Shown: positions 2,186-17,891, counted from the stretch's first letter. The stretch: 20,000 nt of DNA from an uncultured virus (IMG/VR IMGVR_UViG_3300003629_000002) (IMGVR_UViG_3300003629_000002); one strand, 5' to 3'. Notes: generated by a model not told the origin, from the sequence alone. Numbers and translations are program-made.

Positions 2186-2532
2186 ACTTCCACCGTAAAG
2201 ATTAAATCAGTTTCAACTTCATCTGCACCGAAGATAATCGCCCGAAGGCGAACATCAATTGCGTCATTGTTATCTTCATTTGCTGTTACTTCAACCTCTG
2301 TGACTCGATTAAGACGTGGGTCACGGCTGAGAACAGTCGCAAGTGTGTTCTCAATTTGTGAGAAATTAGATGGAATAAGCGGCGTCCCAGTTTCCTCAGT
2401 TAAACGTACAGCCGAGATATACGCAAGGTCTTTTTCGAGTTCATCCTCACCGCGTGATGCCTTAATGTCACCTGTCTCGTCTACAATTAAATCCCAATCG
2501 GAGTCGAGGGCTATACCGTTACCGTAAGACAT
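2182..2532 (-). CDS. gp25/gpW-like baseplate wedge / sheath initiator protein
   Basis: About 116 aa from MSYGNG. The ATG at 2532, preceded by GAGGAGG, is preferred over the GTG at 2568. 'DLIVDETGDI...GEDELEKDL...VLSRDPRLNRVTEVEV' resembles the gp25 fold, and the gene directly precedes J. Confidence 0.8.
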   Translation of the reverse strand: MSYGNGIALDSDWDLIVDETGDIKASRGEDELEKDLAYISAVRLTEETGTPLIPSNFSQIENTLATVLSRDPRLNRVTEVEVTANEDNNDAIDVRLRAIIFGADEVETDLIFTVEV

Positions 2533-2597
2533 TATAATCCTCCTCGCAAATTGGGCTACCTGTTCCACACCTTACTGTTATATATACACTCATCATA

Positions 2598-2610
2598 CTT
2601 AAACCTTTCG
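2598..2610 (-). promoter_or_regulatory. Haloarchaeal-type BRE + TATA promoter (CGAAAGGTTTAAG)
   Basis: The minus strand reads CGAAAGGTTTAAG just after the PAAR-like stop, in an AT-rich intergenic gap of about 80 bp. The layout matches the promoter at 17030-17042. Confidence 0.55.
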
Positions 2611-2611
2611 A

Positions 2612-2995
2612 TTATGTTGTCTCGACCACGCTGTTGTTGCTCCCAGTATTGTCGATTTCGACAGGTCCACCTGTTCCGGGGTCCGTCGCCTCTGCTTGAA
2701 CATCGTCCTTTACATAGAGAGGGCTTCCGTTCACCGTGACAGATTGCGAGACAACCGATGGGTCGATGTCGTGACTCTGAAACGAGCCGCACGTTGGCGG
2801 GTCGCCGGAGTACGAGTGAGCGTGACTATCGAAATGAATGTCGGCGGTTGCCGTAGTAGCAACAGGCGTTCCATTTATGGAGACGCTCTGCGGCGCTCTG
2901 TTTTCGACAGTCCCCGGTGCTGGTTCCGTACAACTACTCGGGTGTCCGAAAGCGGTCGCGTCAGCACCTTCCAGCACAATAGTCTTCTCTACCAT
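2612..2995 (-). CDS. PAAR-like spike tip protein
   Basis: 127 aa directly after the spike gene. Contains repeated 'SVSINGTPVA' and 'SVTVNGSPLY' segments and His/Cys residues (GHPSSC, SHAH, TC..QSH) consistent with PAAR metal ligands. Confidence 0.75.
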   Translation of the reverse strand: MVEKTIVLEGADATAFGHPSSCTEPAPGTVENRAPQSVSINGTPVATTATADIHFDSHAHSYSGDPPTCGSFQSHDIDPSVVSQSVTVNGSPLYVKDDVQAEATDPGTGGPVEIDNTGSNNSVVETT

Positions 2996-3567
2996 GAGAT
3001 TTTACTCCCATCATCAACAAAGTCTACACTTTTCTCGTACCACGTAAAGTTTCCATTTCCATCAGAGACGATTCCATAACCAGAGCCGTCTCCAATCTTA
3101 AACGAGCCATCTTCCGATATTTCGAAGCCGCCTTTTGGTGTCGCGTCATCGCCTTCTGGCTTGAATGAGACTCGTGCCCAGTCGCCATCAGGATGCATCT
3201 CGATATAGAGGTCGCCACGGTTATATCTGATTGTTCCTGCTTCAGCAAGTGGCGCACGGTCTTGGTCGTTATAGAGAACCTGTGTCACGATTGGAAACTC
3301 ACCGGAACCGTGTTCATCGAGGAAGTGAATCATAACCATATCTTCCTTCTTTGGAACGTGTACCATTCCTGCACCGGGAGCCGCAACGGGAACATTACGC
3401 CGTTCCTGAACCTCATCTCGAAGTAGAACGTTAACCTCGAAATTAGAAAAGTCGTCATCTGACGTATGTTCTTCAACGCTCTGCACAATACCAATCTGCG
3501 GCATCTGCACAGACTGCTCGATTACTTGCTCGATGTATTTTGCTTCGGTTCTGTCAAATTCTGTCAT
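2989..3567 (-). CDS. Baseplate central spike (P2 gpV / Mu gp45-like)
   Basis: 192 aa. N-terminal OB-fold pattern (IGIVQSV...VPVAAPGAGMVHVPKKEDMVMIHFLD...PIVTQVLY), followed by beta-strand repeats (IEMHPDG, FEISEDGSFKI, IVSDGNGNFT). Confidence 0.85.
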   Translation of the reverse strand: MTEFDRTEAKYIEQVIEQSVQMPQIGIVQSVEEHTSDDDFSNFEVNVLLRDEVQERRNVPVAAPGAGMVHVPKKEDMVMIHFLDEHGSGEFPIVTQVLYNDQDRAPLAEAGTIRYNRGDLYIEMHPDGDWARVSFKPEGDDATPKGGFEISEDGSFKIGDGSGYGIVSDGNGNFTWYEKSVDFVDDGSKISW

Positions 3568-4913
3568 TGTTCAACACTATATTCTCCTTCTTCCGAACTG
3601 AGTACGATTTCCCCGTCTTGATACTCGAACACAGGTCCGCTGTAACGACCAGCAATACCCGCGCATTCAACTTTAGTAACGTACCCATCCGAACCATTCA
3701 GTCGATGCGAAACCTTTCCTACGAGGTACTGCGCTGGTTCAATGAACTCTCCTTGCGAAGTCTGTCCGAACCGCTTCGGCATTTCAACAACGTCGAGTAT
3801 ATCTACCATTGGACGACCAACAATTGTAATCGAGCCACCAGCCTGTTGCTCCTGTAATTCATTGAGAATCTTATTTCGGATTCGTTGGGCTTCCTCCTTC
3901 GTCTTAATAGACTTATTCTTATAGGTAAAGATAGGCTCTTTTAATTCTTGGTCTGTGCTGGATGCTTGCTGAACTGCCGCGATTTCCTCCTCGGTAAATC
4001 CAATTCGTTGGAGGTCAGCGGTCGTCCCATCATATCCGCCATACGGTTGACCACCAGCCTCGACGCTTCCAACAGAGATTACGCCATCTTTTGAAATTAG
4101 TTTCTTTGCTTCACGTCCAGACTCGGAGGATATTCCGTCTCCGACGACTCGGACGCTTCTATACGGAGGCGTCTGTTTTCCTGCGCTTGTTTCAGTAACC
4201 CAATCTAAGCGATGAATACTCGTTTCAGTTGGGCCAAAACGAAGTACGTTAAATGCATCGACCCACCAATTTACGTTGACTGCTTTTGCAAGGTCGTCGA
4301 GTACGTCAGCACACTTAACTTGTGTATACTGTCTTGAAATTTCTAATCCTTCTTTTGTTGCATTTCTCGGGACATTTGCCCGTGTTTTTTGAACAATGTC
4401 TACGTATCCAAGAGATACATTCTCCTCTGGATTTTCAATATTAATATCTGCTTCAAGGTCAGGAATAATGCTTGAGTCTTTCTCCGAATTTACCTTATCG
4501 ACAATCTCTTGCACGAGTGAAGAAACGACAGTTTCACCATCGCCGGTTGAGAAGTTGAGTTTAATTTTCTTGAGGTCAAGAATGAAATCAACTGCGTCAA
4601 CTTCCCATAGTCCTTTCTGCATCTGGAACGAGTTTGAAACGTATCCAGTAAAGACTCTGTATAATTCATCAGGGTCGTCACTTTTTGAGCGTCCAGCATT
4701 CTCGATGAATGATGTGCGCGGTCCTAATCTGATGATAATTTCAGTTCCTTCAACTGGGACTATATCGCCTTCCTGTTCGGGGTCAGGAATTACCATCATT
4801 CTTGCTGTATCAGTCTCGTTATATCTCGAACGAGAGACATCCATATCTGTCGGAATCCATTTGTTTCCGCCAATCTGAATGTCAATAGCAATATCGTGTT
4901 CGATTATCGTCAT
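3564..4913 (-). CDS. Baseplate hub protein (P2 gpD / Mu gp44 / T4 gp27-like)
   Basis: 449 aa between the initiator and spike genes. Motifs VFTGYV, 'DVLDDLAKAVNVNWWVDAFNVLRFGP', 'SITIVGRP' and 'YLVGKVSHRLNGSDGYVTKVE' are typical of hub proteins. Confidence 0.85.
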   Translation of the reverse strand: MTIIEHDIAIDIQIGGNKWIPTDMDVSRSRYNETDTARMMVIPDPEQEGDIVPVEGTEIIIRLGPRTSFIENAGRSKSDDPDELYRVFTGYVSNSFQMQKGLWEVDAVDFILDLKKIKLNFSTGDGETVVSSLVQEIVDKVNSEKDSSIIPDLEADINIENPEENVSLGYVDIVQKTRANVPRNATKEGLEISRQYTQVKCADVLDDLAKAVNVNWWVDAFNVLRFGPTETSIHRLDWVTETSAGKQTPPYRSVRVVGDGISSESGREAKKLISKDGVISVGSVEAGGQPYGGYDGTTADLQRIGFTEEEIAAVQQASSTDQELKEPIFTYKNKSIKTKEEAQRIRNKILNELQEQQAGGSITIVGRPMVDILDVVEMPKRFGQTSQGEFIEPAQYLVGKVSHRLNGSDGYVTKVECAGIAGRYSGPVFEYQDGEIVLSSEEGEYSVEQ

Positions 4914-5521
4914 CTATCAACCTCTACCAATTCAATGCCGAACGTGTGCGTGAATTGTCCATCAAGGTCGATTGCGCCTCCATCTTCCAATGGGCTTGTC
5001 GAAGTAGCCGCAACCTGACAAACACCAGAATATCGGCTACTAATTATCTCAATTGTAGCCTCATATCGGAGATTATCGAGAAGCAATGCTTCCATTGCCG
5101 TACAAACTCCCTCGATAGAGATTTCGACAAGTCCGGGTCCGATTCGTTGTCGAACAATTGGCCCGTCGATGGTCGCGTGTTCGGTAAATCGTGCGCTCGA
5201 ATTAACTGATACGTTTGGCTGGTCGTACTTCAACTGAAAGATGAGTCCACCATTATCAGTAAATCCTTGCGTGTCTCCTGAACTTCGAATCCGATTCTTC
5301 TGACGCTCGGCCTGTTGTGCGCTGATGAACCCTGCTTGTCGAAGTTGATTAATCCCTTCGATTGTGTTCTGTGTCGCGCCTTCAGGAAGACCCATCTCCG
5401 CGATTCTGGTCCCGCGACTCTCAAGTTCTGAAACTGAAACGGGAACATTATCGCGCTGGATTCCTGAAATAGTTACAGGCTCACGGTCGTCAATAAGCGT
5501 ATTGTCTTCTTGTAATACCAT
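4910..5521 (-). CDS. Tail tube initiator-like protein (P2 gpU-like) with N-terminal extension
   Basis: 203 aa after the tape measure gene. The C-terminal half 'ARFTEHATIDGPIVRQRIGPGLVEISIEG...FGIELVEV' resembles the gpU/tube-initiator pattern. Confidence 0.7.
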   Translation of the reverse strand: MVLQEDNTLIDDREPVTISGIQRDNVPVSVSELESRGTRIAEMGLPEGATQNTIEGINQLRQAGFISAQQAERQKNRIRSSGDTQGFTDNGGLIFQLKYDQPNVSVNSSARFTEHATIDGPIVRQRIGPGLVEISIEGVCTAMEALLLDNLRYEATIEIISSRYSGVCQVAATSTSPLEDGGAIDLDGQFTHTFGIELVEVDR

Positions 5522-8199
5522 TATCCTGAGAATGCCTCCTTACGACGACGGAAGGTATTCGCTTCTTCCATTGCGTCTCTGACAAGTCCTTTGATTCTCT
5601 GCTTGTCTTCGGGACGAGCATTAATTTCTTCAACGTTGTTATTCGTCTCGTTATAGACTGACACTTCGGGAGTCGGCTGTTTCGTTGGTTGCCGCCCGCC
5701 AACTTCGAAGTCTCTCGAACGGAAGTCAACTTCTTGAAGTCTGCCAACTTCATCAATTCCGTCAACGGGGACGCCGGTAGCGGCAGAAATTGCTTCCTTT
5801 GTTCCGGGCATATCAAGCAATTTATTGTACGAATCAATCATTCTGTTAATGCCTTTGATAAATGTATTGTTAATGAAGTCTTCGAGCGCAGTTGCGGCAA
5901 TGGAAAGTCCTTCTGTGACTGCCGGTCCAACTTCTCGCATTGACTCCATAAAGTCATCGGTTCTATCTGTAAGGTCATTAAATCCTTGACCGATTGCCGC
6001 AACAATCTCATTCATCGGTCCAAGGTCATTTATAAGGAAATCAATGACACCTGCAAGAATTTCGAAGAATCTAATTATTCCGATAGAGAGGATATTGAAT
6101 ATCGTCTGATAGATTGCTGTCCACGCATCTATCCAACCACCAAGAAGACCTGCGCTCTGGTCAATGAGTTCGTTGATTCCACCCATCATATCTGAGAATC
6201 CACTACCGAGATTTAGAATCTCAGAGAATCTCTCGATTCCGACACTAAGTGCATCCTGAAATGCCCAAATTGCACCAACTACAACCAATAAGACTGAGAG
6301 AACAATTGCGAGTTTTGCACTTATCAGACCAAAGACTCCTGTTGCAAGTGTTCTCGCAATTGCCGAAAATGCTGACCGTAAGATTGCGATGGTGTCTTTC
6401 CATCGGAACAGCAGAAGAAGCCCCTGTGCCAATGAAATAAGGAAGTTAGATTCCGCTTCACCAGAGACACCTTCACCGCGTGCCTTCTTAAATTCAGCAA
6501 GACTCTCGTTCAAGGATTCCATACTGCCATCGCTTTCCTCGATGCTGTCAGACAGATTCTCGAAGTCATCAGCCAAGTCTGTGACGAGGAAGTCGAGGTC
6601 CATAATTGCTTTCCCAAGATTCTGGCCTGCGTTAACAGTCTTCTTCAGTAGAAGAATAAATGCGCCTAACTTAAGCGCGTTAACCAGTAAGCCATCAGGA
6701 ATTGAATTGACGACTTTCACAACGTCAGTTAGTGTCTGTAGGAAGACACCGAGAACGGGCAGAACTGCCTTGAATAGTGTGACACCAAAGCGTGAGAACT
6801 CCTTCGTCGTTTCGATTAGTTGCTTACCGAACGCGGCAATAGTTGGCAGGATTCGAACGCCTTGTTCCTCGAAGAACGCAAGAGCGCGTGGGAGCGCATC
6901 CATAAACCAATAGATAAAGTCATTGATAAATGGTGCGAATGCTCTGATTGTTTCTTGAATTTCAACCACCAGATTCGGCATATTGTGGAAGAACGAGCGC
7001 CCGATGTCTGCTTGGAATACAGACAAGAAGTCTTGCATTCCGGCAATACCTCTTGCCGAGATATTGACCAAGCGTGCAACGCCGTCAACAAAGCGTTCGA
7101 GCATCTGGATAGATTGCTGGTTTTGAAGTGGCTCAAGCGCATTCACGAGTTGGTCACGGAATCCTTCCATAACGTGCTGGATTCCCTCCATCGTGCCTTC
7201 CAATTCGGAGTTAGCCTCAGCCGCCTGCTCTCCCATCGTGAGAAGACCAGCGCCGAAGATTCCACCAAACGCAACACCAGCAGTAATTGCCGCCGCAGTT
7301 ACGCCAGCAATCGAGGTCGTAAGACCACCGAATAGCGTAAGCAATGCCGGAATCTGGATAGCCATCTGCCGAAGTTGGAAGTTGAACGGACCAATGTTAA
7401 TAGATGCCGCAAGTGTCTCGAATGAGAACTCCGTAATCTCACGATTGAGGTCGGAGACTTCATCTTCAGCATCTTCTGCCGCTTCTTCCATTCCACGCAT
7501 CGAGGTCGCCCACGCCATTGCCGCAGAACTGCTCTGCCCCATTGCAATAGCCTGTTCGTATAGTTCCTCGTTAACGTCGTCAAGTTTTTCGGCAAGAGCG
7601 CCAGCACTTAACCGAGCGTTAACCATTGATTCGGCTTCCTCATTAATGGACGCTTGTGTAACGCCAGCCGCTCGCGCAAGTGCCTTGTTATTACCTTCAG
7701 CAATCTCCTTCATTTCCGCGAGTGAAAGCGAATCTTCAGCGGCTCGCGCAAATGCATCAGCCTCTTGGTCAATTCTGCGTTCTGTTTCTTGCGTTACAGA
7801 ACCAAGAACACCTTGCTGAGAGGCGACCTTATCCACGCCTTGCTCAAGTTGGTCGAGTTGCCTAATAGAGTCACCAATATCAGGAACTTGGAAATCTGCT
7901 TGCCTGACGCCTCGGCCACCCTCTCCGCCGAACATTTGGGCACGTTCTCTCTCGGAGAACATATCCCCAATTGTGGTATCAAGTCCCTCGAAGTCGCTTT
8001 GAGCGCGGTGGACCTGCTGTCGAACTTCTTTGAGTTCATCGGAGACGCGCTCTCCCATACCGTCACCGATGTTATCCATCGAGGAATCAGTAGCCTGCGC
8101 GACAGCCGCAGTCTCCCCAAGTTCTTTCTGTATTCCGTTTAACTTGCGTTGAGCGTTTTCGGATAGTCTTACGTTTAGGTCAATATCTCGTGTTGCCAT
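5521..8199 (-). CDS. Tail tape measure protein
   Basis: 892 aa, helical and Ala/Gly-rich, with hydrophobic TM-like segments. It follows the chaperone gene and starts 'MATRDIDLNVRLSENA', as is typical of TMPs. Confidence 0.9.
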   Translation of the reverse strand: MATRDIDLNVRLSENAQRKLNGIQKELGETAAVAQATDSSMDNIGDGMGERVSDELKEVRQQVHRAQSDFEGLDTTIGDMFSERERAQMFGGEGGRGVRQADFQVPDIGDSIRQLDQLEQGVDKVASQQGVLGSVTQETERRIDQEADAFARAAEDSLSLAEMKEIAEGNNKALARAAGVTQASINEEAESMVNARLSAGALAEKLDDVNEELYEQAIAMGQSSSAAMAWATSMRGMEEAAEDAEDEVSDLNREITEFSFETLAASINIGPFNFQLRQMAIQIPALLTLFGGLTTSIAGVTAAAITAGVAFGGIFGAGLLTMGEQAAEANSELEGTMEGIQHVMEGFRDQLVNALEPLQNQQSIQMLERFVDGVARLVNISARGIAGMQDFLSVFQADIGRSFFHNMPNLVVEIQETIRAFAPFINDFIYWFMDALPRALAFFEEQGVRILPTIAAFGKQLIETTKEFSRFGVTLFKAVLPVLGVFLQTLTDVVKVVNSIPDGLLVNALKLGAFILLLKKTVNAGQNLGKAIMDLDFLVTDLADDFENLSDSIEESDGSMESLNESLAEFKKARGEGVSGEAESNFLISLAQGLLLLFRWKDTIAILRSAFSAIARTLATGVFGLISAKLAIVLSVLLVVVGAIWAFQDALSVGIERFSEILNLGSGFSDMMGGINELIDQSAGLLGGWIDAWTAIYQTIFNILSIGIIRFFEILAGVIDFLINDLGPMNEIVAAIGQGFNDLTDRTDDFMESMREVGPAVTEGLSIAATALEDFINNTFIKGINRMIDSYNKLLDMPGTKEAISAATGVPVDGIDEVGRLQEVDFRSRDFEVGGRQPTKQPTPEVSVYNETNNNVEEINARPEDKQRIKGLVRDAMEEANTFRRRKEAFSG

Positions 8200-8202
8200 A
8201 AT

Positions 8203-8430
8203 TTATAGATTGGGGTTTCTGGACACGCCAGAGTCTTCTTGTCGCATTCGTTTACGTTCTTCCTTCGCGTGGAATAGGAAGTGTAATTGTCCCTCTGTCA
8301 ATTCATCTGCAAAGGCTTTTCGTTTCTTTCTCTGAATTTGACCAGAGTCAGTAACAGTTCGTTCAGTTACAGAGAATGGATGCCCATGCTCAATTGCATA
8401 GAACAGTTGTTGTCCTATCCCTGTTCGTGA
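8203..8430 (-). CDS. Predicted -1 frameshift extension of the tail assembly chaperone (gpT-like part of a gpGT fusion)
   Basis: An open -1 frame with no suitable start codon fills the gap to the TMP: SRTGIGQQLFYAIEHGHPFSVTERTVTDSGQIQRKKRKAFADELTEGQLHFLFHAKEERKRMRQEDSGVSRNPNL*. Candidate slip site GAT TTT C at 8429-8435. The stop lies 3 nt before the TMP ATG. Confidence 0.75.
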   Translation of the reverse strand, partial: SRTGIGQQLFYAIEHGHPFSVTERTVTDSGQIQRKKRKAFADELTEGQLHFLFHAKEERKRMRQEDSGVSRNPNL

Positions 8431-8861
8431 AAATCTTGAATTGCACCGTCGTTCTCCATCGAGTAGGAGATAACTTCAGTACCAAGTGCGAGTAGTGCCT
8501 CAAAGTTGAGACTCTCCACAATGTCATTCATCTGCGGCGGTGCAAGGTCTTCGTGAACAAGCGATGCTTGCACGAGGTCTTGGAACGCCTCGATGGTATT
8601 ATCGTCAATGTCGTTCATTGAGAGGCCGTCGCTCGATTCAATTGCTTCCTCTGCCTCCTCGACAGAATCAGCCTCCTCTGCCGCCTCGAACATTGCATCA
8701 GGAAGACGCGAAATCGTGGATGTAAGTGTCGGCTTATCCACGGGATGCATCTCAACTCCTGTAAGCGTTGAACCGCTCTTGTGTTCAAGGTTAATGGTCT
8801 TGTAATCCTCTACGCCCTGCGTTACTCTTTTGTAAAAGTCAATTGCTTCTTCTTCTTGCAT
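8415..8861 (-). CDS. Tail assembly chaperone (lambda gpG-like position)
   Basis: 148-aa acidic protein between the tube and TMP genes, ending ...IQDFHEQG and overlapped by an open -1 frame. Confidence 0.8.
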   Translation of the reverse strand: MQEEEAIDFYKRVTQGVEDYKTINLEHKSGSTLTGVEMHPVDKPTLTSTISRLPDAMFEAAEEADSVEEAEEAIESSDGLSMNDIDDNTIEAFQDLVQASLVHEDLAPPQMNDIVESLNFEALLALGTEVISYSMENDGAIQDFHEQG

Positions 8862-8915
8862 AATTAGTAATACCTAAGTTACAGTAGTTACAACCTTATC
8901 ACTCGACCATACTTG

Positions 8916-9068
8916 AACGGTGTCTTATTCAAGCGGGATAGTTGCCTCATTGCACTATATCTAAGAGGAATAGTGCGAGAGACTTCTGTCACGCTTGAAC
9001 AAGACAGAATAGAACTGGAAACCGTTCGTTCTCGTCGTTACACGAATGACAGGTCAACGTCATCCGTT
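8916..9068 (-). ncRNA. Putative structured RNA / cis-regulatory element (multi-helix junction)
   Basis: Within a 222-bp intergenic gap: a 15-bp stem (8921-8935 with 8992-9006), three short adjacent hairpins and a closing helix (8916-8920 with 9064-9068). No known family recognised. Confidence 0.5.
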
Positions 9069-9083
9069 AATTTAGCCGGGGTC

Positions 9084-9485
9084 TTACGCTACTACGAGTT
9101 CTTCTGCCGTGAAGTCGTAGGTAACGGAAGTCCGGTCGTCAGCGGGGAAGTCCTTCGACCGAGAACCGACAACCACACCCTTAAAGGTGTAGGTCGTTTC
9201 TGAGTCGATAATTACGAGTTGGTCAATCTTTCGAACGACTGACGACTTCGGCGCTGTCTGCTCACCGAAAATCGCATCACGAAGTTCCTTATTAGAACCC
9301 GTGTGTTCGAATGAACCTGAATACTCGATGCCAGTCTGGACAATGCTCTGCGTTAGAGACGTGTTAAACTGGACGTTTGATGTATTCGGTTCCTCTGAAT
9401 AGGACGCACTCGTCAGCGGAATCGGTTCAGGATTCCCACCAACAAACATCTCTACGTCATTGCCGATTTCTTCTCTGTTAGCCAT
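9084..9485 (-). CDS. Tail tube protein
   Basis: 133-aa beta-rich protein immediately after the sheath, ending 'YTFKGVVVGSRSKDFPADDRTSVTYDFTAEE'. AGGTGA SD at 9492-9497. Confidence 0.85.
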   Translation of the reverse strand: MANREEIGNDVEMFVGGNPEPIPLTSASYSEEPNTSNVQFNTSLTQSIVQTGIEYSGSFEHTGSNKELRDAIFGEQTAPKSSVVRKIDQLVIIDSETTYTFKGVVVGSRSKDFPADDRTSVTYDFTAEELVVA

Positions 9486-9496
9486 TTTATATCACC

Positions 9497-10882
9497 TTAG
9501 TTTGTGCTGATAGTAACTGTGGTGTCAATCCGCTTAACGATACCCTGCGGCGTGACACCAACGTCGATGTTAACTTGGTCAGCATTTGTCGTGTCTTCGT
9601 ACACATCGACGAAGTAATTCTGGTCATCAGTTTCATTCGGCTTAATGAGACGGTCGTTGGCAAGCGATTCGAGTTCCGTGTTGATTGTACGCTCCGCCGC
9701 ATTCCGAGTACGCTCGTCGTTGATTCGCCCAATCGTGTCTTCGCCAACCTGCTTGGCTACAAGAATTACGCGGTCAACGATACGCCGACGCCAGTAGTCG
9801 CGCTCCCAATCAGTCTCTTGCGAGGTTGAAAGATTACGTTTTGCACGAATAGAAGCACCCTGCCGAAGCGGGATGACTTCTTCTCCTGCCATTTCGTCTT
9901 CCTCTGTCTTCGTGAACTTCTGTTCGAGGTCACGATTACTGTCGTCAGGAAGAACGTTTACAACGTCATTGTAAACCGGCTCATTGATAGAGGAGCCTGC
10001 GAACAGGCCACTAATTCCACCAAGGACTGTCCTCGTATATGGACGAGTTTCGCCATCTGCCGTAATCGGCGCGAACCGAACAGGAGCAAACGCGAACAGG
10101 TCGTCCGAATCGAGACTATCGCTGTAATTTGCCGTATCGAAGTTCGGAGCCTGAATCCGAGTACCAGATTCGTCGGTTTCGGTATCGTTAGGCTGTGCGC
10201 CTGCGAATCCGACAACCATCTGATAATTTGGACGAAGGTCCTGAACTTTTGTATCGAGAGTCGATGCAACCGATTCTGCCTCTGAAAGAGTCACGTAAAC
10301 GCCAGTATCGTCTTCACCGACAACGTTATCAGCCGAGTCGAGTGCCGTACTCCACTCCTGATACTCGTAGTCGATGTCGTAATCGTCGGACCCGCTGGAG
10401 TCTACAACAAACTCGCCCGTGTATGGGTTTACGTATGCTGTGTCGTCCGTGTTTGCAGGGTCAACTGGTGGACTTTCATAGACGAACTGCACATCCATAT
10501 CGGTAGGTCCTGCCGTTTGCTCGATTGTAAGCGTGGAAGCGTCTTCCACAATCGGCGCATTGGCGAGGGTTCCCGAAGCGGAGGTAAAGTTCTCGTCTGT
10601 TACTGCCGTCGTGTCTACTGCGACTCCGTAGAGGTATTCGAGATTCGCACCATTGGCGAGAGCCTCTCGCATCGCTTGAGCAAGTTCGGAACCGCTTCCG
10701 AAAATGCTGTCAGCCTCCGAGCGTGCCCCAATCTGAGTTGGGTTATTTACGCTACCGGAACCGCTTGCGAGGTCGGCTTCGCCAAAGATGACAAGAATCT
10801 CCTCAGCACCGAGTGCGATGCCAGAGATTGCACCACCCTGAGTCGTTACTTGAATACCGGGGAAGTCTCCGTAAGTTGCCAT
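9497..10882 (-). CDS. Contractile tail sheath protein
   Basis: 461 aa. N-terminal 'FPGIQV', 'EADSIFGSGSELAQA..EALANGA', and the sheath C-terminal domain 'RRRIVDRV...IGRINDERTR...VNIDVGVTPQGIVKRIDTTVTI'. AGGTGA SD at 10891-10896. Confidence 0.93.
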   Translation of the reverse strand: MATYGDFPGIQVTTQGGAISGIALGAEEILVIFGEADLASGSGSVNNPTQIGARSEADSIFGSGSELAQAMREALANGANLEYLYGVAVDTTAVTDENFTSASGTLANAPIVEDASTLTIEQTAGPTDMDVQFVYESPPVDPANTDDTAYVNPYTGEFVVDSSGSDDYDIDYEYQEWSTALDSADNVVGEDDTGVYVTLSEAESVASTLDTKVQDLRPNYQMVVGFAGAQPNDTETDESGTRIQAPNFDTANYSDSLDSDDLFAFAPVRFAPITADGETRPYTRTVLGGISGLFAGSSINEPVYNDVVNVLPDDSNRDLEQKFTKTEEDEMAGEEVIPLRQGASIRAKRNLSTSQETDWERDYWRRRIVDRVILVAKQVGEDTIGRINDERTRNAAERTINTELESLANDRLIKPNETDDQNYFVDVYEDTTNADQVNIDVGVTPQGIVKRIDTTVTISTN

Positions 10883-10946
10883 ATGTTAAATCACCTTTGG
10901 TTTGTCATTGCTTAAATTGCTACCCGACATAACCCCATACATTGCA

Positions 10947-11534
10947 TTACACATTTTCAATGACACCATCGTCGTCAGAGTCATTGAAGTCGTCGTCTGT
11001 GGGATAATCGACGCTGACGATGTAATCTTCTGTCGTCTCGAACTCCTCGTATGCCCACAGCGTTACATCCTGACGCCATCGGCGGAGTGTTGGATTCATC
11101 GTCAAATCATCTATGCGCTCGCCTTCATCAACCGTGAAGCGCCAAACTGATTCTGCCAACTGTCGGGAGGGACCGGCAGAGTCGTATTGGTAGAGCGCAT
11201 TTCTTAATGCATCGGACATTGGCCCAATCCACTCATCATCCTGTGACCTATTGTCTACTGTTAATATGTCAATCTGGATGGTCATCGTGTATTCGGCGTG
11301 GTAGACTCGACCAATCTGGTTCCCGTTGTCATCGGTGACATATCCAGAAAGGTCGGTGTTGAAGTCTGTAATTCTTGCACTCGACACAGGCGTAATCTGA
11401 ATCACAGGAATCTTTGCTCCTGCTTCAAGACCATCGTGGTCAACTTCTTGTACGATGTACGTGGTTCTTGCAGGAAGTTCCGATGAATCCTGCAACGCAT
11501 CTTCAATTTCGTACAAAACCTGTGTCGGTGTCAT
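10947..11534 (-). CDS. Tail completion / terminator protein
   Basis: 195 aa directly upstream of the sheath. The 'KIPVIQI...YTMTIQIDILT...DALRNALY' alpha/beta pattern fits tail terminators. The call rests mainly on gene order. Confidence 0.65.
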   Translation of the reverse strand: MTPTQVLYEIEDALQDSSELPARTTYIVQEVDHDGLEAGAKIPVIQITPVSSARITDFNTDLSGYVTDDNGNQIGRVYHAEYTMTIQIDILTVDNRSQDDEWIGPMSDALRNALYQYDSAGPSRQLAESVWRFTVDEGERIDDLTMNPTLRRWRQDVTLWAYEEFETTEDYIVSVDYPTDDDFNDSDDDGVIENV

Positions 11535-12061
11535 TAGAAGTGTAGATTGTTTTGGATGTGGTCAACAAGTTCGTCGGCCACTTGGTCAAGTAGTCTGTCC
11601 TTTGCTTGAAACTCTTGGACTGCCTCTCGGAAGAAGGAATATTCGTCAACACCTTGAATAACCTGCGGATAGATTATTTCTCCAGATGTCGGTCCTTCTG
11701 TGCTTTCGAAGCGGAATACACCGCTTTCTGTTACATCCTCCGCGTAGATGAGATTTGCAGTCCCAAATTCGAGATAGAACGCTCGTTCGGAGACGACAGG
11801 AATTGTCTTAACCGTATAATCCATATTGCCGTTACGTTCTACAACCCACGCTTCTTCGCTTGCAAGCGGTGGGCCGGGACCTTTATCCGGTCCTTCTCCA
11901 ATGAGTCCTTTTGCCTTAATCTTATCTACAAGAAAGGGAACGAACTCATCTTCGAGAACGTTTTGCATTGCGTCGTCAGCCGTGTCTCGAATATTTATTG
12001 TTGATAAATCAGCCTGTAATTGCTCAATGTCTGATGCATCAATATTAACGTCAAACGTCAT
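11534..12061 (-). CDS. Neck protein, HK97 gp10 / Mu gpG-like
   Basis: 175 aa carrying the 'AFYLEFGT' and 'GVDEYSFFREA' motifs characteristic of HK97 gp10-like proteins. Confidence 0.75.
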   Translation of the reverse strand: MTFDVNIDASDIEQLQADLSTINIRDTADDAMQNVLEDEFVPFLVDKIKAKGLIGEGPDKGPGPPLASEEAWVVERNGNMDYTVKTIPVVSERAFYLEFGTANLIYAEDVTESGVFRFESTEGPTSGEIIYPQVIQGVDEYSFFREAVQEFQAKDRLLDQVADELVDHIQNNLHF

Positions 12062-12481
12062 TCAGGACCACCGATTGCCCGGAGTAGGGTCTGACGTTGA
12101 GTATGTATATGGTTGCGTCGAATCAGCGTCTTCAGTTTTCAGCACACCTTGCTGAAGCAACTTACCGACGATTTTTTCATACTCATCACAGAACGACTCG
12201 GCGTAGGAAACCTTCGTGTCTCCCGTGTCCGATAAGTCTCCGAGTGAAATATCGTCAGGATGCTCCGCACCTTTTGCAAGTTGACAGGTCGCCAACTGCT
12301 TGATTGCGGCTCGCATCATCGTCGTGATATTCGACGGATTAATGGCCTCACCATTATTTAAGTCTAATTCGAGTGACGCTTCTGCGTGTTCCAGCGCATC
12401 CTCCTTCTCCTCGTTAGAGTAATCATCAGGAATTTGCACAGGAACGTCAGAAACAGTCACGTATTTAGGGTCGTATGCCAT
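12062..12481 (-). CDS. Head-tail adaptor protein
   Basis: 139-aa helical protein right after the MCP: 'YVTVSDV...ALEHAEASLE...MRAAIKQLATCQL...ISLGDLS..VSY'. Confidence 0.7.
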   Translation of the reverse strand: MAYDPKYVTVSDVPVQIPDDYSNEEKEDALEHAEASLELDLNNGEAINPSNITTMMRAAIKQLATCQLAKGAEHPDDISLGDLSDTGDTKVSYAESFCDEYEKIVGKLLQQGVLKTEDADSTQPYTYSTSDPTPGNRWS

Positions 12482-12506
12482 AATCCAATATATTTTAGGG
12501 TGTCGA

Positions 12507-12547
12507 GTAGCAATAAAGCGATACTACAACAGAGAGCGTTCCCTGTT
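12507..12547 (-). terminator. Two adjacent hairpins after the MCP stop (possible 3' stabiliser or attenuator)
   Basis: Minus strand reads AACAGGGA-ACGC-UCUCUGUU (12528-12547), directly followed by GUAGUA-N9-UGCUAC (12507-12527). Each stem contains one G-U pair that forms only in the mRNA sense. Confidence 0.4.
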
Positions 12548-13383
12548 TATGCGTCAACCTTCACAGCCGCCTCGGGGAAGATAGCCTTCCACGCCTTGCG
12601 GGTGAAGATTTGCATAATGTCTGCCTGACGCTCGGGGTCCTCGTACTCGTTCGTAGAGACGGGGGTCCGCGTCAGTTCGTAGCCGTAGTGACTCGTGTCA
12701 ATGACGAACGCGCCAGCCTTCGGGTCAGAGTCGGAACCGCCCTCGTCTGTACCGATGCTTCGCGTGTTGTCAACAACAACTCGCATCCCGGCAATCTGTC
12801 CAACCTCACCAGTCGCAACAACCTCGTCACCAGACTCAGTAGCCCGGTTGAAGTTGCTGTCCGTTAGGAGGTCCCCGTATCCGTCGAGGTCCACGATAAG
12901 GAGGTCAGGATTGTAATTGTTCTGCCGAACGGCAACCATACCGTCACGGATGTCGCTGAAGGTAAGAACGTCGTCACCGTCACCAACCGTCGAGTCAACG
13001 TTGCCGTCCAACTCGGTGAAGGCTTCGTCGTTCAGTTTCTCAGCCATTGCACGAGCAAGGTCCTCGACCTCGCGTGCCTTGAAGTCAATCATACCGTCTT
13101 CCATCGCCTCCATAGTGATGGCAACCTCGCCACCGTACTTCTTGAAGGTAACAGTTACCTGATTGACCGAACTCTGGTCACGCTCGAACTCCTCACCTTC
13201 GGCAATGATGTTGGGCGAACCCATATCGTCATTGTCGATGTTGAACGTGTAAGAGTTGGACTGAATGCCCGTTGCGCTAATCTCTCGGAAAGCCTGTCGG
13301 TAGACAAGGTTCTCCTGAAGAACTTCCTCAACCGTTTCACGGACAAAGTCCTCCGTGATTACGTCATTAGTAGTTAGTGTCAT
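12547..13383 (-). CDS. Major capsid protein (HK97 fold)
   Basis: 278 aa with HK97-fold motifs: 'IAEGEEF', 'VTFKKYGGEVAITMEAMED', 'LARAMAEKLNDEAF', 'GEVGQIAGMRVVVDN' and a terminal 'PEAAVKV'. AGGTGA SD at 13391-13396. Confidence 0.93.
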   Translation of the reverse strand: MTLTTNDVITEDFVRETVEEVLQENLVYRQAFREISATGIQSNSYTFNIDNDDMGSPNIIAEGEEFERDQSSVNQVTVTFKKYGGEVAITMEAMEDGMIDFKAREVEDLARAMAEKLNDEAFTELDGNVDSTVGDGDDVLTFSDIRDGMVAVRQNNYNPDLLIVDLDGYGDLLTDSNFNRATESGDEVVATGEVGQIAGMRVVVDNTRSIGTDEGGSDSDPKAGAFVIDTSHYGYELTRTPVSTNEYEDPERQADIMQIFTRKAWKAIFPEAAVKVDA

Positions 13384-13402
13384 ATATTATTCACCTCTAA
13401 GT

Positions 13403-13873
13403 TTAGAGGGCCACCTCAGCCCAATGCTGACCCGAACCATCCGTGTATACCTCTACAGCACGGGCGGATAGGCCAAGCGAGTTGGAGTTTGCAAGAGACG
13501 CAGACCCAAACTCACCAGCATCGGTGTCGGTCCCGTTAGTGTTGTCAATGCTACCGAGAGCATCGCCAGCAGAAACGTCACCGCTCACGCGAGCCTTGTA
13601 ATTTCCACGAACAGCAACGTTTGCGTCAACGTCGCTGTCAATCTTCTCACCTTGATGGGATGCGCCGTATACCTCGTAACTCACGAGAACGCCAACAATC
13701 TCGTCACCTTCTCCGGCCTGCGAGATAGTTGTTCCATCATACGCTACAACATCGCCGGGCTGAACTGTCGCATTCTCAAGGAGAGTACCGTCACTCTCGG
13801 AATGAGGCAGTCCAACCGTGTCACCGTTACGGCGAACTTCCATACCGCCGCTTACGTCTTGAACACCTGACAT
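13403..13873 (-). CDS. Capsid decoration / cement protein
   Basis: 156 aa between the scaffold and MCP genes. 'VQPGDVVAYDG..IVGVL...ANVAVRG..ARVSGDVSAGDAL' resembles beta-tulip (DUF2190-like) decoration proteins. AGGTGA SD at 13880-13885. Confidence 0.65.
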   Translation of the reverse strand: MSGVQDVSGGMEVRRNGDTVGLPHSESDGTLLENATVQPGDVVAYDGTTISQAGEGDEIVGVLVSYEVYGASHQGEKIDSDVDANVAVRGNYKARVSGDVSAGDALGSIDNTNGTDTDAGEFGSASLANSNSLGLSARAVEVYTDGSGQHWAEVAL

Positions 13874-13890
13874 ATTAAATCACCTAAATT

Positions 13891-14418
13891 TTACCCGAGA
13901 ATCTTCTGACGAAGTTCTTCCTGCTTCTGCGAGACTTCTTCGTCTCGCTCAAGTTCTTCCTCAGTCTTGTAGTCACCGGAAAGTTCCTCCTCACTTGGGT
14001 CACTACCCTTCGGGTCAGGGGATAGTTCTTCCTCAAGGTCGCCAACGTGTTCTGCGTGCTTGGAACGGAGTTCCTCGATGGAGAACTTCTCCATCAGTTC
14101 CTCAGCGTCAAATGCGCCAAGTTCCTCAGCGAGATTGCTGGCATATACTTTCTTCACCTGTTCTGCCTCGTCCGAGAGAGACTCATAGCGAGAGGACTCG
14201 ATGACCATCGGCTCGTCGGAGTCAGCAAGTTCGTCCACGAGTTCACGGTCTACTTCATCGAGAACCTCGGTACGCTCTCGTAGTTCGGAAATATCTTCCG
14301 AAATATCTTCGTACTTGTTGGCCTTTTCTTGGAGTTCGTCGAGGTCCGTCTCCTCTACGGCGACGGGTTCCTCAAGTTCTTCAAGCCGGGCCTGAAGTTC
14401 TTCACTTAGTTCTGTCAT
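13891..14418 (-). CDS. Putative nested in-frame scaffolding protein (175 aa, MTELSEELQARL...)
   Basis: The in-frame ATG at 14416-14418 is preceded by AAAAGTGATTAAT, close to the AGGTGATTTAAT-ATG context of the decoration gene, and sits where the coiled-coil region begins. Confidence 0.6.
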   Translation of the reverse strand: MTELSEELQARLEELEEPVAVEETDLDELQEKANKYEDISEDISELRERTEVLDEVDRELVDELADSDEPMVIESSRYESLSDEAEQVKKVYASNLAEELGAFDAEELMEKFSIEELRSKHAEHVGDLEEELSPDPKGSDPSEEELSGDYKTEEELERDEEVSQKQEELRQKILG

Positions 14419-16944
14419 ATTAATCACTTTTGTTTTCGAGTCCATATCGCTCTCCCCGGACTTACAACTTTGCCGGAAGTCATCGCTGGTGAGGACAGAC
14501 ACCCCGGCAAGTTTAGGAGTGCCGGACTCCATTTCTTCATCGTCTCCGAAAGTTGCATCCTCGAAGTTATCATTGGCAAGTCGGTCAATCATATCGCTGA
14601 TTTCCGACTCATCCTCTGCGGATACGCCTTCAACCTGACCCGCTCGCGCCTTCGCATTTGCCAAGGCGTTTAGATTGAGCGTGCCATCAGGTTCCACAAC
14701 CGGAAGCGCGAGGTCGGAGAATCGCTCCGGCGGCATCTCGCCAGTCTTCGAAACGAGGAAGTGGTTTGCAATATCCATTCGCTCATCACCCGAGAGGTCG
14801 TCCCACGACTCATCCGTAAAGTCTTCAAGGTCAGGAGCATTCCATTCCTTATCTGCTGTGGAATCCCACTCGGGTTCGTGCATCGCCTGAAGTTCTGCGT
14901 TTTCCTCGAACGACTCGGACTTCCGAATCGCCCAATCAACGCCTTCATCGCCACCCCACGCCTTCCACATCATCCAGCCACAGTCAGCCTCGCCTTCATC
15001 ATCAGACATATCAGCATTCTGACGATGACGGTTAAACTGAGCCATACGCTCGATGGTATCGCGTGAGAGTGCTTCACCTGAAGCAAGTTGATTCGCTCTT
15101 GCCCAACCAACGTCGGTTCCGCAATCATTCGGATTGCCGGTCTGCTCTCTTGCGTCAAGGGCCATCTGCGCGTTCTCCTTTGCGGCTTCAGGGTAATCGG
15201 AGTATGTTTCCTCATTTTGCGAGGAGGAACGCATCGAGAAATCAGTCTCCGAGACTGTGTTCTCCTTATGTGCGACGATTGTACCGGAACGCTTCCAGCC
15301 ATTTTCAGTTTCCTCGACAACTGCGATAAGAAGTGCATCCTCGTCTTCCGAGGCGCAAACCTTCACATCACCGTCGATTCTACTTCCGAAACAGCCTTCA
15401 GTTCTCCGGTCAACAACGACGCCGCGTGCGTCTCCGCCAGAGGATTCCCACATTACCTTATCGCCTTCTGCGGCCATCTCCTCCTCATCCTTCATATGGC
15501 CGCTTTGAACAGCGCCCTTACGGAATTTTTGAATATCGGAGAAGCCAGCAGAGATGGTGAATCCTGTCGAAATGAGTTCACCGTTCTTCATTTCGTGAAT
15601 TTCTACCATCACGATGTCACGCTTTCGGTCAACGTGAACAATCTTTCCAAAGAGTTGTGGCTCAACCTGCCATTGGACAATCATTCCATCTTCCCATTCA
15701 GGAGTAGACGGAACATCATCTTCATCTTCAGGCTCGCCGTGTGTTTCTCCTTCAGGGTTCTCCCCCTCAAGGTCACGGTTATCCTTCATCGGATGCTTCC
15801 TGTCCATCAAGTGACGGTTGAGTTCTTCTGGAAGCGCGGACAACTCCCCGGTTTCCATATAGGCCGCAAGGAACTGCTCGTGAGTTTCCCCCGGCATATA
15901 GTATGTCACTCCTTCGACTTCCATCGTGTGAGTCGCACCTTCGAGGCCGAGTTGCCGGGATTTCTCAATCGCTCGGTCCTCAGATTGGAACATAAAGTTC
16001 TCGGGAGAGATGTTTTCAGTTGAGTGCTTCTCCTCGTGCCACTCTACAAATTCCTCGTGAGTGTCACCGGGCATCCAACTGCCATCCATTTCGTGAACTC
16101 CCGTAAGGCCGTCCTTGCCTTCAATGAACGCAAGCGCCTCATCTTCGGAGTCAAACATAAAGTCCTCGGGAGGAGCATTTTCTTCCTCATCTTTGGGAGC
16201 GCCGATGTCATCTTCATCGAGGTCCCATTCATCAAGGTCGTCAAGCGAAACTTCAGATTGTTCGCCAGTCGCACGCCACTTACCGTCAATCTCCTCCATT
16301 AGTTCAACGGTAGCCGTACCATCTTCAACTTTGAAGATGATTCCGTGATTATCGTCCCATTGGACGAAATCAGACGGTTCAAATTCTTGAAGTTCTTCCA
16401 AGCCATCAGTAAATTCGGCAAGTTCTGAAATGGAGAGTTCCGAATGAGCGCCCATTTCGAGCGAGTTGCTCGGTGATGCGCCTTTCGGGACAATGGAAAG
16501 ATTGTCAAATTGAATATCTTCGACAACCTTTACACCGTCTTCTTTTTCCTCCATCTCGTCTACGTCAACGTGGTATCCACGAATAGAGACTTCAAGCAAT
16601 CCATCCTTTACCTTCTCCGCAAGTTCCTTGTCAAAGAGTTCTGCCTCGTAGATGACACCAACGTCATCCTTGTAGCCAGCCTTTGTTACACGACCCACAA
16701 CACCATTAGAGGAGTTGTTGTGGTCAACGACAAGATTCTTGCCTTGAAGTGTTTCTGCGGCTTTCGCAAGTTCTTCACCGGGCCATAATTTCTTGATTCC
16801 AGAGGAACCATGAGTCACATCACCCGAGCCGAGGGCAACACCATGAATCGTGTAAGGTGGCCCATCCTGCTCATTTTCAGATAGGTGTGCCTCACGGCGC
16901 TCAAACTCAAGAACGTTTACTGTTTCAATATTCTGAACACTCAT
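13891..16944 (-). CDS. Prohead protease-scaffold fusion with multiple inserted domains
   Basis: 1017 aa. The N-terminal ~165 aa show the capsid maturation protease pattern (IHGVAL, ELAKAAETLQGKNLVVDH, VVGRV, LEVSIRG, FDNLSIVPKGA). The C-terminus is an acidic coiled coil. The gene lies upstream of the decoration and MCP genes. Confidence 0.85.
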   Translation of the reverse strand: MSVQNIETVNVLEFERREAHLSENEQDGPPYTIHGVALGSGDVTHGSSGIKKLWPGEELAKAAETLQGKNLVVDHNNSSNGVVGRVTKAGYKDDVGVIYEAELFDKELAEKVKDGLLEVSIRGYHVDVDEMEEKEDGVKVVEDIQFDNLSIVPKGASPSNSLEMGAHSELSISELAEFTDGLEELQEFEPSDFVQWDDNHGIIFKVEDGTATVELMEEIDGKWRATGEQSEVSLDDLDEWDLDEDDIGAPKDEEENAPPEDFMFDSEDEALAFIEGKDGLTGVHEMDGSWMPGDTHEEFVEWHEEKHSTENISPENFMFQSEDRAIEKSRQLGLEGATHTMEVEGVTYYMPGETHEQFLAAYMETGELSALPEELNRHLMDRKHPMKDNRDLEGENPEGETHGEPEDEDDVPSTPEWEDGMIVQWQVEPQLFGKIVHVDRKRDIVMVEIHEMKNGELISTGFTISAGFSDIQKFRKGAVQSGHMKDEEEMAAEGDKVMWESSGGDARGVVVDRRTEGCFGSRIDGDVKVCASEDEDALLIAVVEETENGWKRSGTIVAHKENTVSETDFSMRSSSQNEETYSDYPEAAKENAQMALDAREQTGNPNDCGTDVGWARANQLASGEALSRDTIERMAQFNRHRQNADMSDDEGEADCGWMMWKAWGGDEGVDWAIRKSESFEENAELQAMHEPEWDSTADKEWNAPDLEDFTDESWDDLSGDERMDIANHFLVSKTGEMPPERFSDLALPVVEPDGTLNLNALANAKARAGQVEGVSAEDESEISDMIDRLANDNFEDATFGDDEEMESGTPKLAGVSVLTSDDFRQSCKSGESDMDSKTKVINMTELSEELQARLEELEEPVAVEETDLDELQEKANKYEDISEDISELRERTEVLDEVDRELVDELADSDEPMVIESSRYESLSDEAEQVKKVYASNLAEELGAFDAEELMEKFSIEELRSKHAEHVGDLEEELSPDPKGSDPSEEELSGDYKTEEELERDEEVSQKQEELRQKILG

Positions 16945-16978
16945 CTGTAAGCCACCTGCTCTTGACCGTTCGTAGTCA

Positions 16979-17013
16979 TTTATATCTAATGTGCGTCGTC
17001 CCGTTTATATGTA
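16979..17013 (-). promoter_or_regulatory. Tandem TA(C/G)ATATAAA boxes upstream of the protease gene
   Basis: The minus strand carries TACATATAAA (17004-17013) and TAGATATAAA (16979-16988), 25 bp apart, followed by an AGGTGG SD-like motif before the ATG at 16944. Confidence 0.4.
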
Positions 17014-17029
17014 GATTCTGTGCTACTAC

Positions 17030-17042
17030 CGAAAGACTTAAG
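17030..17042 (+). promoter_or_regulatory. Haloarchaeal BRE + TATA promoter for a leaderless transcript
   Basis: CGAAAGACTTAAG ends 24 nt before the ATG at 17067, the spacing expected for leaderless haloarchaeal mRNAs. Confidence 0.7.
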
Positions 17043-17066
17043 TGTTTGCAGTACGTATACATTATT

Positions 17067-17204
17067 ATGCCTCGTTCTAACACAGTACGATTGAGCGATG
17101 AAGAATTAGAATTACTTAAAGAATACCGAGATAATGAATATAGTGGATATGTTCCATTAGGATTTGTTATAGGGGATATAATTAAGAATAGTAAAGATGA
17201 CTGA
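17067..17204 (+). CDS. Small ribbon-helix-helix (CopG-like) DNA-binding protein
   Basis: 45 aa: MPRSNTVRLSDEELELLKEYRDNEYSGYVPLGFVIGDIIKNSKDD, a beta strand (TVRLS) followed by two helices. The start was reassigned from the ORF track's 16857 using the promoter spacing. Confidence 0.65.
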   Translation: MPRSNTVRLSDEELELLKEYRDNEYSGYVPLGFVIGDIIKNSKDD

Positions 17205-17874: not shown

Positions 17875-17891
17875 TCTTTCGGTTTGATTCA

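Follow-up and report, generated by a model that had tools for sequence, protein, structure and literature searches.

A myovirus needs hundreds of copies of its sheath and tube proteins and only a few of its chaperone, tape-measure and baseplate proteins. The locus studied here lies where a viral tail operon passes from the first group to the second, and the question it raises is what the gap at this point carries. We examined it in a window of 20,000 nt, the whole stretch of DNA analysed, from an uncultured salt-lake archaeal virus (IMG/VR IMGVR_UViG_3300003629_000002). A preliminary description, made from the sequence alone, had placed a five-helix structured element at 8916..9068, in a 222-nt interval said to be the largest between co-oriented genes of the operon. 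ORF calling puts all long ORFs in this part of the window on the minus strand, and the genes around the interval are:

9497-10882, minus strand: sheath gene, a long ORF
9084-9485, minus strand: tail tube gene, an ORF of 133 aa, the neighbour upstream of the element
8415-8861, minus strand: tail assembly chaperone-like gene, an ORF of 148 aa, the neighbour downstream of the element
5521-8199, minus strand: tape measure gene, a long ORF

The gap itself is real, spanning 8862-9083 between the tube and chaperone ORFs, and is the largest in the minus-strand block 302-16944 save for 8200-8414, which a -1 frame ORF covers. In Pfam, the tube (Phage_tube_2, E 4e-4), sheath and GpU matches are weak and fall under the curated cutoffs, and the Baseplate_J and capsid matches are clear; the tube protein is 86% identical to that of gene 18 of Halogranum tailed virus 1 (HGTV-1, Halomagnusviridae). 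Downstream, a 90-codon stop-to-stop frame at 8203-8475 (minus strand), -1 relative to the chaperone gene, overlaps the last 60 nt of that gene and runs until 4 nt ahead of the tape-measure start; it looks like the product of a G/GT-type programmed -1 frameshift, and the corresponding stretch of HGTV-1 is annotated as a separate gene 20. Elsewhere in the window, a 1017-aa ORF at 13891-16944 (minus strand) carries prohead protease signatures (Peptidase_S78, DUF2213) together with DUF3721 and a TUDOR-like domain, and is predicted to encode a fused head-maturation protein of unusual length. Adjacent to it, 16945-17891 comprises 947 nt without a long minus-strand ORF, flanked by two large minus-strand genes and containing a 225-aa plus-strand ORF (17197-17874).

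That the gap is structured was borne out by folding energy on both strands. Its mRNA-sense fold reaches -71.7 kcal/mol where dinucleotide shuffles give -50.7 ± 4.8 kcal/mol (z -4.37; 0/200 as good), and the plus strand folds at -66.1 kcal/mol (z -3.96; 0/200 shuffles as good). By contrast with this gap, the one that follows the capsid gene and the one that precedes the sheath gene fold at the level of their shuffles (z -1.18 and +0.44). The minimum free energy (MFE) structure of the gap in mRNA sense includes hairpin 1 of the preliminary description, a 15-bp stem with an inner GCACUAU/AUAGUGC, and the pairing GAACGGU/ACCGUUC.

Homologous gaps between the same two genes are found in HGTV-1 and about 20 metagenomic contigs. 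HGTV-1 is the nearest named genome (72.8% identity over 8400-9500) and the sole relative returned by a search of a phage collection; its gap, 165 nt and unannotated (16232-16396 of NC_021328), lies between gene 18, the tube homologue, and gene 19 (z -3.85). Searching with the tube protein gave 12 close viral contigs, one distant contig and 7 metagenome contigs, and in 12/12 of the close viral contigs and 7/7 of the metagenome contigs the element lies directly past the tube stop, whole or cut at the contig end. The homologous gap measures 134-222 nt in the close contigs, and the chaperone homologues, 55-72% identical, always come after the element. A scan with a chaperone profile added L264 and L265, whose element is as in L091 (L264 lies on the L091 contig), as well as L275, L277, L278 and L279. 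The locus thus holds a genuine conserved structured RNA element, as had been proposed, at the tube-to-chaperone junction in every relative examined, the deep contig L279, taken up below, departing from this.

We read a structure model by eye from the aligned gaps and then scored it by pair counts. On this comparison the gap encodes a pseudoknotted RNA element, conserved and present as a single copy, whose length is about 115 nt and, in the window, about 177 nt; it would be part of the sheath-tube-chaperone-tape-measure transcript and read in mRNA sense. Its parts in the window, listed from 5' to 3' of the message, are:

9042..9067, minus strand: H1 hairpin, ACGGAUGAC / GUCAUUCGU, a 9-bp stem, one pair of which is G.U, capped by an 8-nt loop; in the MFE structure
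9051..9056, minus strand: pseudoknot 5' strand, (U)GACCU, the 3' part of the H1 loop; partner 8891-8896
9034..9037, minus strand: P0 5' strand, CGAC, forming a 4-bp helix with 8904-8907
9028..9033, minus strand: J strand GAGAAC, whose GAA is one half of a sarcin-ricin-like internal loop; GAA in 9/10 rows of alignment A2
9021..9027, minus strand: P1 5' strand, GAACGGU; partner 8915-8921; in the MFE structure
9007..9020, minus strand: L, the unpaired pyrimidine-rich strand UUCCAGUUCUAUUC, with CCAGUU(C/U)U in 10/10 A2 rows
8921..9006, minus strand: P2, a variable hairpin of 86 nt; the MFE structure gives it a 15-bp stem on the outside, then middle pairs, GCACUAU/AUAGUGC further in and UCCUCUUAGAU as its apical loop
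8915..8921, minus strand: P1 3' strand, ACCGUUC; partner 9021-9027
8908..8914, minus strand: J' strand AAGUAUG, whose AGUA is the other half of that sarcin-ricin-like loop; AGUA in 9/10 A2 rows
8904..8907, minus strand: P0 3' strand, GUCG; partner 9034-9037
8891..8896, minus strand: pseudoknot 3' strand, AGGUU(G), six nt after P0, in register with the relatives in A2
8862..8890, minus strand: A/U-rich spacer to the chaperone AUG, with a possible local hairpin in the MFE structure that overlaps the pseudoknot 3' strand

Each of the helices that make up the core changes on both sides among relatives. H1, of 8-9 bp, has 95-99% of cells paired with compensatory change in 3-5/8 pairs, and is joined to P0 by a linker of 3-4 nt of which the last is A. 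P0 occurs as CGAC/GUCG, CAAC/GUUG, CACC/GGUG and CACU/GGUG (97% of cells paired), and P1 as GCUGG/CCAGC, AUUGG/CCAAU and UCUGG/CCAGA (compensatory change in 5/6 pairs). Where the relatives have GCUGG/CCAGC, the window and L015 have GAACG/CGUUC, and the nearby loop CCAG stays constant while P1 changes; it is therefore the distal pairing that is under selection. Between the H1 loop and the strand beyond P0, about 100 nt downstream, loop columns 37-42 of A2 are predicted to pair with columns 198-203, as in an H-type pseudoknot. This helix has 93% of cells paired, with compensatory pairs at 6/6 positions in A2 and 3/6 in A4, and occurs in relatives as AGUCAA/UUGACU, AGUCAU/AUGACU, GGUCAU/AUGACC and GGUUAA/UUAACC; it is GACCU/AGGUU in the window and only AAUC/GAUU in L015, the closest relative of the window.

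Overall pairing was scored on three alignments, with counts that rest on about five lineages and are inflated by relatedness, and with a slid-partner control that favours the model, since the sequences counted are those from which we drew up the structure by eye:

A2, 10 distinct sequences: 93.8% paired, 27-43% with slid partners, both-side change in 21/30, 0/500 shuffles as good
A4, 9 sequences without the window: 94.0% paired, 28-48% slid, both-side change in 19/30, 0/500 shuffles as good
A7, 11 sequences aligned to the model: 93.2% paired, 27-49% slid, both-side change in 20/30, 0/500 shuffles as good

The unpaired parts of the core are conserved in sequence. According to the accessible part of PMC1865062, the sarcin-ricin/loop E (bulged-G) consensus is AGUA/GAA, with AGUA/AAA also allowed. 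Like this motif, the element has AGUA on its 3' strand facing GAA on its 5' strand, between Watson-Crick helices and in the correct orientation, in 9/10 A2 rows; the deviating rows are L003 (ACUA) and L008 (GAC). Unlike the consensus it has an extra C:A mismatch beside P1, and the match is one of sequence, so that the invariant GAA and AGUA may be the two halves of a sarcin-ricin-like motif. The conserved pyrimidine-rich strand CCAGUUCUAUUCU lies between P1 and P2 and is enclosed by P1. The surroundings are not kept in this way: the element starts 2-24 nt past the tube stop and ends 24-40 nt ahead of the chaperone AUG, with unconserved spacers on both sides, and the flanks inside the gap are unalignable (16% identity in the 5' flank) though the core is kept. 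In the spacer at 8862..8890 the relatives align poorly, and no conserved Shine-Dalgarno or TATA was seen by eye. At 10883-10946 (minus strand), the sheath gene is preceded by an A/T-rich box and by AAGGUGAU, 7 nt ahead of its AUG, which we take to match the haloarchaeal anti-Shine-Dalgarno well; nothing equivalent is conserved at the chaperone gene.

Compensatory changes were thus found among the related gaps, for another structure than the one in the preliminary description, whose specific five-helix model is not supported. For its closing helix AACGG/CCGUU, its second hairpin (UCGU/ACGA) and the kissing interaction between CGUUG and UAACG taken together, 54.8% of cells pair across 10 homologous sequences; shuffles reach 54.6%, 275/500 of them scoring as high, and all three compete with the covarying H1, P0 and P1. 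The third hairpin (GAAC/GUUC), a possible second pseudoknot, is paired in 70% of cells against 69% in shuffles, and does no better than these because both of its sides are nearly invariant. What survives is the first hairpin, which is the top of H1 and is present in the MFE structure, and the pairing GAACGGU/ACCGUUC, which is P1 and covaries; having been offered as a switch alternative, it is instead constitutively conserved. The 15-bp stem, for its part, belongs to the MFE structure and is not conserved, being a window-specific expansion of P2. The element also reaches past the span 8916..9068, outside which lie the 3' strand of P0, the AGUA strand and the pseudoknot partner, at 8891-8915.

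The preliminary description had also left the functional strand in doubt, and this doubt is partly answered. The second-to-third pair of H1 is G.U in 6-7/10 sequences and G-C or A-U in the others, and P0 and P1 likewise contain U.G pairs in mRNA sense. Because these kept G.U and U.G pairs of H1, P0 and P1 would be A:C on the opposite strand, we take mRNA sense as the more likely functional strand. The pairing totals are nearly equal (93.8% of cells in sense and 92.8% in antisense), and a C:A at the innermost P1 position in four sequences runs counter to the sense strand. If the tail genes belong to a single operon, the mRNA-sense strand is certainly transcribed.

A covariance model built from nine relatives with the window left out (R1) recovered the element in the window at 8892-9070 on the minus strand, over the whole model (57.9 bits, E ~1e-10). 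With filters off, the local match in the window scored 27.9 bits and the next best in the window 7.0 bits. In the 143,855-nt HGTV-1 record R1 found one copy (117 bits, 16248-16361), in the gap between genes 18 and 19. A loose DNA pattern of the conserved strand gave, among the matches listed, mostly chance matches in viral and genome contigs; R1 kept 3/80 of the viral loci among the matches listed, with L091 as a new member, and, likewise among the matches listed, none of 80 unrelated genome loci sharing the pattern.

The window differs from its relatives chiefly in the size of P2, 86 nt against 19-21 nt, which appears as a 70-nt insertion when the window is aligned to the covariance model. 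The P2 stems of the relatives are wholly different in sequence and compensating (5/6 pairs compensatory), and the apical CUCU(U) is kept in the window as in the relatives, except L015 with a bare CUC. The same expanded form recurs in a contig of a second study, with 0 differences over 8875-9080; an exact search of viral contigs for the expanded hairpin gave 0 matches, and no deletion variant of it was present among contigs from 4 DNA runs. Such fourfold growth of a peripheral hairpin with the core intact is typical of functional RNAs.

Deeper relatives show how far the element extends. In three contigs (L275, L277 and L278, here clade 2), whose chaperones are 45-55% identical to that of the window, H1, P0 (CAAC/GUUG, CGAC/GUCG) and P1 (GCCC/GGGC, CUCUC/GAGAG, CCCU/AGGG) are kept in 3/3, and a covarying pseudoknot from loop to 3' strand in 2/3 gaps (UCGC/GCGA and UGGC/GCCA, in L275 and L277). 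For L278 we saw no strand that could close the pseudoknot, and the folding energy of its gap does not stand out from shuffles (z +0.82). P2 lies on the opposite side of the conserved strand in clade 2 and is absent from L278. The conserved strand itself reads ACACACC(AC)UAUUYUA, of which only CUAUUYU is common to the clade of the window, and the AGUA/GAA motif is absent from L275 and L277, L278 having AGUA/AAA. A pattern scan for clade 2 returned only the three contigs already found and 3 chance matches.

Contigs at 79-296x, against 2-4x for the window sequence, were observed in three runs of one study. Their match to the window is confined to 8830-8862, the 33 nt with which the chaperone gene begins. 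Further upstream they diverge and look like the 3' flank that the clade-2 element has in L275; an abundant relative carrying the other form of the element appears to live in the same habitat. In L279 (chaperone 41% identical) the element is absent. Its tube-chaperone gap holds, at 770-810 on the plus strand, a G+C-rich hairpin of 12 bp whose 10-nt loop is rich in U; UUUUU comes next, then two small hairpins (z -3.70); as modelled, this would be a different, terminator-like solution at the same locus. The hairpin was not called by our terminator scan because its loop is 10 nt long. Together, the 12-bp hairpin and UUUUU at this position suggest that the locus is a transcript boundary.

Comparison with catalogued RNAs identified no known family. 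Rfam 15 (4227 models) gave 0 matches at gathering thresholds over the whole window; at E up to 10 the region 8800-9150 gave only a chance match to mir-958 (16.4 bits against a gathering score of 78), and nothing was found at the element in the loci of 7 relatives. ARAGORN called 0 tRNA or tmRNA genes in the window and the Rfam tRNA model had 0 matches there, no hammerhead model matched at E up to 10, and the motif CUGANGA is absent from the window, in line with the earlier remark that the element was not recognised as a tRNA or known ribozyme. The xrRNA and riboswitch models of Rfam likewise had no match to the element, and the tail-gene context suggests no metabolite ligand. A terminator scan of 8700-9300 found 0 sites with a hairpin and U-tract. 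On inspection by eye the hammerhead was rejected, the helices standing in series (P0-P1-P2) without a three-way junction, and a K-turn, a BHB splice motif, a C/D box and a conserved TATA before the chaperone gene were dropped; stop-codon readthrough was dropped as well, another stop lying 3 codons past the tube stop.

The element, which matches no catalogued RNA family, probably helps to set the amount of the downstream tail proteins made. The reading that we prefer, and to which we give a probability of roughly 40%, is that it acts in cis as intercistronic punctuation, uncoupling translation, defining and protecting the 3' boundary of the sheath-tube message, and offering its U/C-rich strand as a docking site for a host factor or as a cleavage site. 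The compact knotted fold would break the translational coupling that links the other genes of the operon. It would also mark where the abundant sheath/tube message stops on its 3' side and protect that boundary, through an exonuclease block, through partial termination or cleavage at the displayed U/C-rich strand, or through both, probably by way of a U-binding host factor. The outcome would be lower expression of the chaperone, tape measure and baseplate genes downstream. The slot of this single-copy element, always between the abundant sheath/tube genes and the low-copy chaperone, tape measure and baseplate genes, is consistent with such a role. The available extract of PMC12542753 says that genes sharing a transcript in the haloarchaeal virus HFTV1 rely on termination-reinitiation coupling, which a structured gap of 134-222 nt would break. 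Against this reading, the conserved strand in the window has no run of more than 2 U, and the terminator scan was empty there.

A plain hairpin would do for stabilising a message, so the elaborate core, with its pseudoknot, sarcin-ricin-like loop and invariant CCAGUUCU, points to something more specific, be it a ligand, a protein or catalysis. It could be a translational operator, which we regard as possible though unlikely: a viral or host protein or a small ligand would bind the conserved core (the sarcin-ricin-like loop, the CCAGUUCU strand and the CUCU loop of P2) and control initiation at the chaperone AUG 24-40 nt downstream, giving autogenous or timed control of the chaperone and tape measure. 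Loops of the sarcin-ricin type are classic protein-docking sites, the unpaired nucleotides are strongly conserved and the stems vary freely, the element always lies just upstream of the chaperone start, and in the window the pseudoknot 3' strand overlaps the local hairpin beside the AUG. However, the start codon and any conserved Shine-Dalgarno fall outside the element, the spacer to the AUG varies both in length (24-40 nt) and in sequence, we identified no candidate binding protein, and no riboswitch or leader family in Rfam matches. Less probable, and a surprise to us if found, is a self-cleaving ribozyme or a dedicated RNase processing site, which would cut the polycistronic mRNA between tube and chaperone into two messages with different fates. 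Small ribozymes are typically compact and pseudoknotted, with unpaired nucleotides that do not vary. The pistol pseudoknot, though, presumably differs in topology from that of the element, the models for hammerhead, twister, pistol, hatchet and HDV ribozymes all give no match up to an E of 10, inspection by eye showed no CUGANGA/GAA core set in a three-way junction, and P2, which has switched sides in clade 2 and is missing in L278, has much freedom for part of a catalytic core. Haloviruses do provide a precedent: the consulted portion of PMC3088659 describes variant hammerheads in saltern viral DNA (HHmeta) and HHphage in HF1/HF2, one of them 13 nt upstream of a start codon. The element resembles those as a small RNA that uses a pseudoknot, sits in halovirus transcripts and lies shortly upstream of a start codon; it differs in having neither the hammerhead core nor the three-way junction, and its cleavage is hypothetical.

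Two further explanations were weighed. A stand-alone small RNA, sense or antisense, could act in trans by sequestering a host factor or regulating viral or host messages, and in one variant the complementarity of loop and tail might be intermolecular. The opposite-strand structure scores nearly equally, and antisense RNAs are frequent in the structural operons of HFTV1, as far as the accessible text of PMC12542753 goes. We nevertheless hold this improbable, for upstream of H1 the region is tube coding sequence with no conserved promoter-like A/T box visible by eye, the window has CTTCAC at the site where HGTV-1 has CTTTAC, the G.U of H1 becomes A:C in antisense, and the element is single-copy in a constant intercistronic slot. 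That there is no RNA function at all, the gap being a DNA-level protein-binding or recombination site or a neutral spacer with chance structure, is already disfavoured by the comparative data and would now be quite astonishing: the inverted repeats do fold on either strand, yet compensatory change runs through five helices including a long-range pseudoknot, which is meaningless in duplex DNA, and the core is kept while the flanks in the same gap are unalignable. A bolder proposal, which we rate as a long shot, is that the element founds a new functional RNA class specific to archaeal tailed viruses. It might then be a new self-cleaving ribozyme, or a riboregulator that senses a protein or ions and is adapted to molar salt; in either case it would act as punctuation in the tail operon and fix how much tube is made relative to chaperone and tape measure.

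Intercistronic punctuation of the kind we favour has analogues among known systems. The intercistronic hairpin of Rhodobacter puf and the REP elements of E. coli malEFG are simple bacterial hairpins; like them, the element is a structured RNA between highly expressed upstream and lowly expressed downstream cistrons, with an expected step-down, and unlike them it is a five-helix pseudoknotted RNA with conserved unpaired nucleotides in an archaeal virus, with a putative effect on stability or termination. In the xrRNAs of plant viruses and flaviviruses a hairpin loop and a 3' strand close a compact knot. The loop of the element also pairs with a strand 3' of it, and by analogy could plausibly be a barrier to a processive exonuclease, but its knot encloses an 80-nt domain through which the 5' end is not threaded, archaeal nucleases differ, and there is no likeness in sequence or to the covariance models. 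The T4 gene 32 leader, the S4 site of the E. coli alpha operon and the rpsO S15 site are pseudoknotted operators that overlap or abut the ribosome-binding site. With these the element shares an H-type pseudoknot upstream of a cistron and conserved single-stranded nucleotides suited to protein binding, whereas its knot ends 24-40 nt ahead of the AUG and its binding protein is hypothetical.

To our knowledge, very few structured cis-regulatory RNAs are known in archaea. Our literature search found no description of this element, nor of any structured cis-regulatory RNA in tail operons of archaeal tailed viruses, and the available sections of a 2021 survey of archaeal tailed viruses (PMC8651126) make no mention of such an element. 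PMC10690425 is a catalogue of more than 10,000 viral RNA candidates; six IMG/VR sample or genome ids (HGTV-1 and five related contigs) are absent from 6 of its supplementary files, three further files lying outside the search, and a prior listing there is possible. The element stands as a new RNA family, of a kind for which analogues are known, the structured mRNA elements that lie between cistrons and contain a pseudoknot. The element is testable because HGTV-1 and its host, Halogranum sp. SS5-1, are in culture. A compact pseudoknot with a sarcin-ricin-like module that folds at molar salt is of interest to work on RNA structure, and an element at the very point where the tail operon switches from abundant to low-copy proteins offers a concrete handle on post-transcriptional control in haloarchaea.
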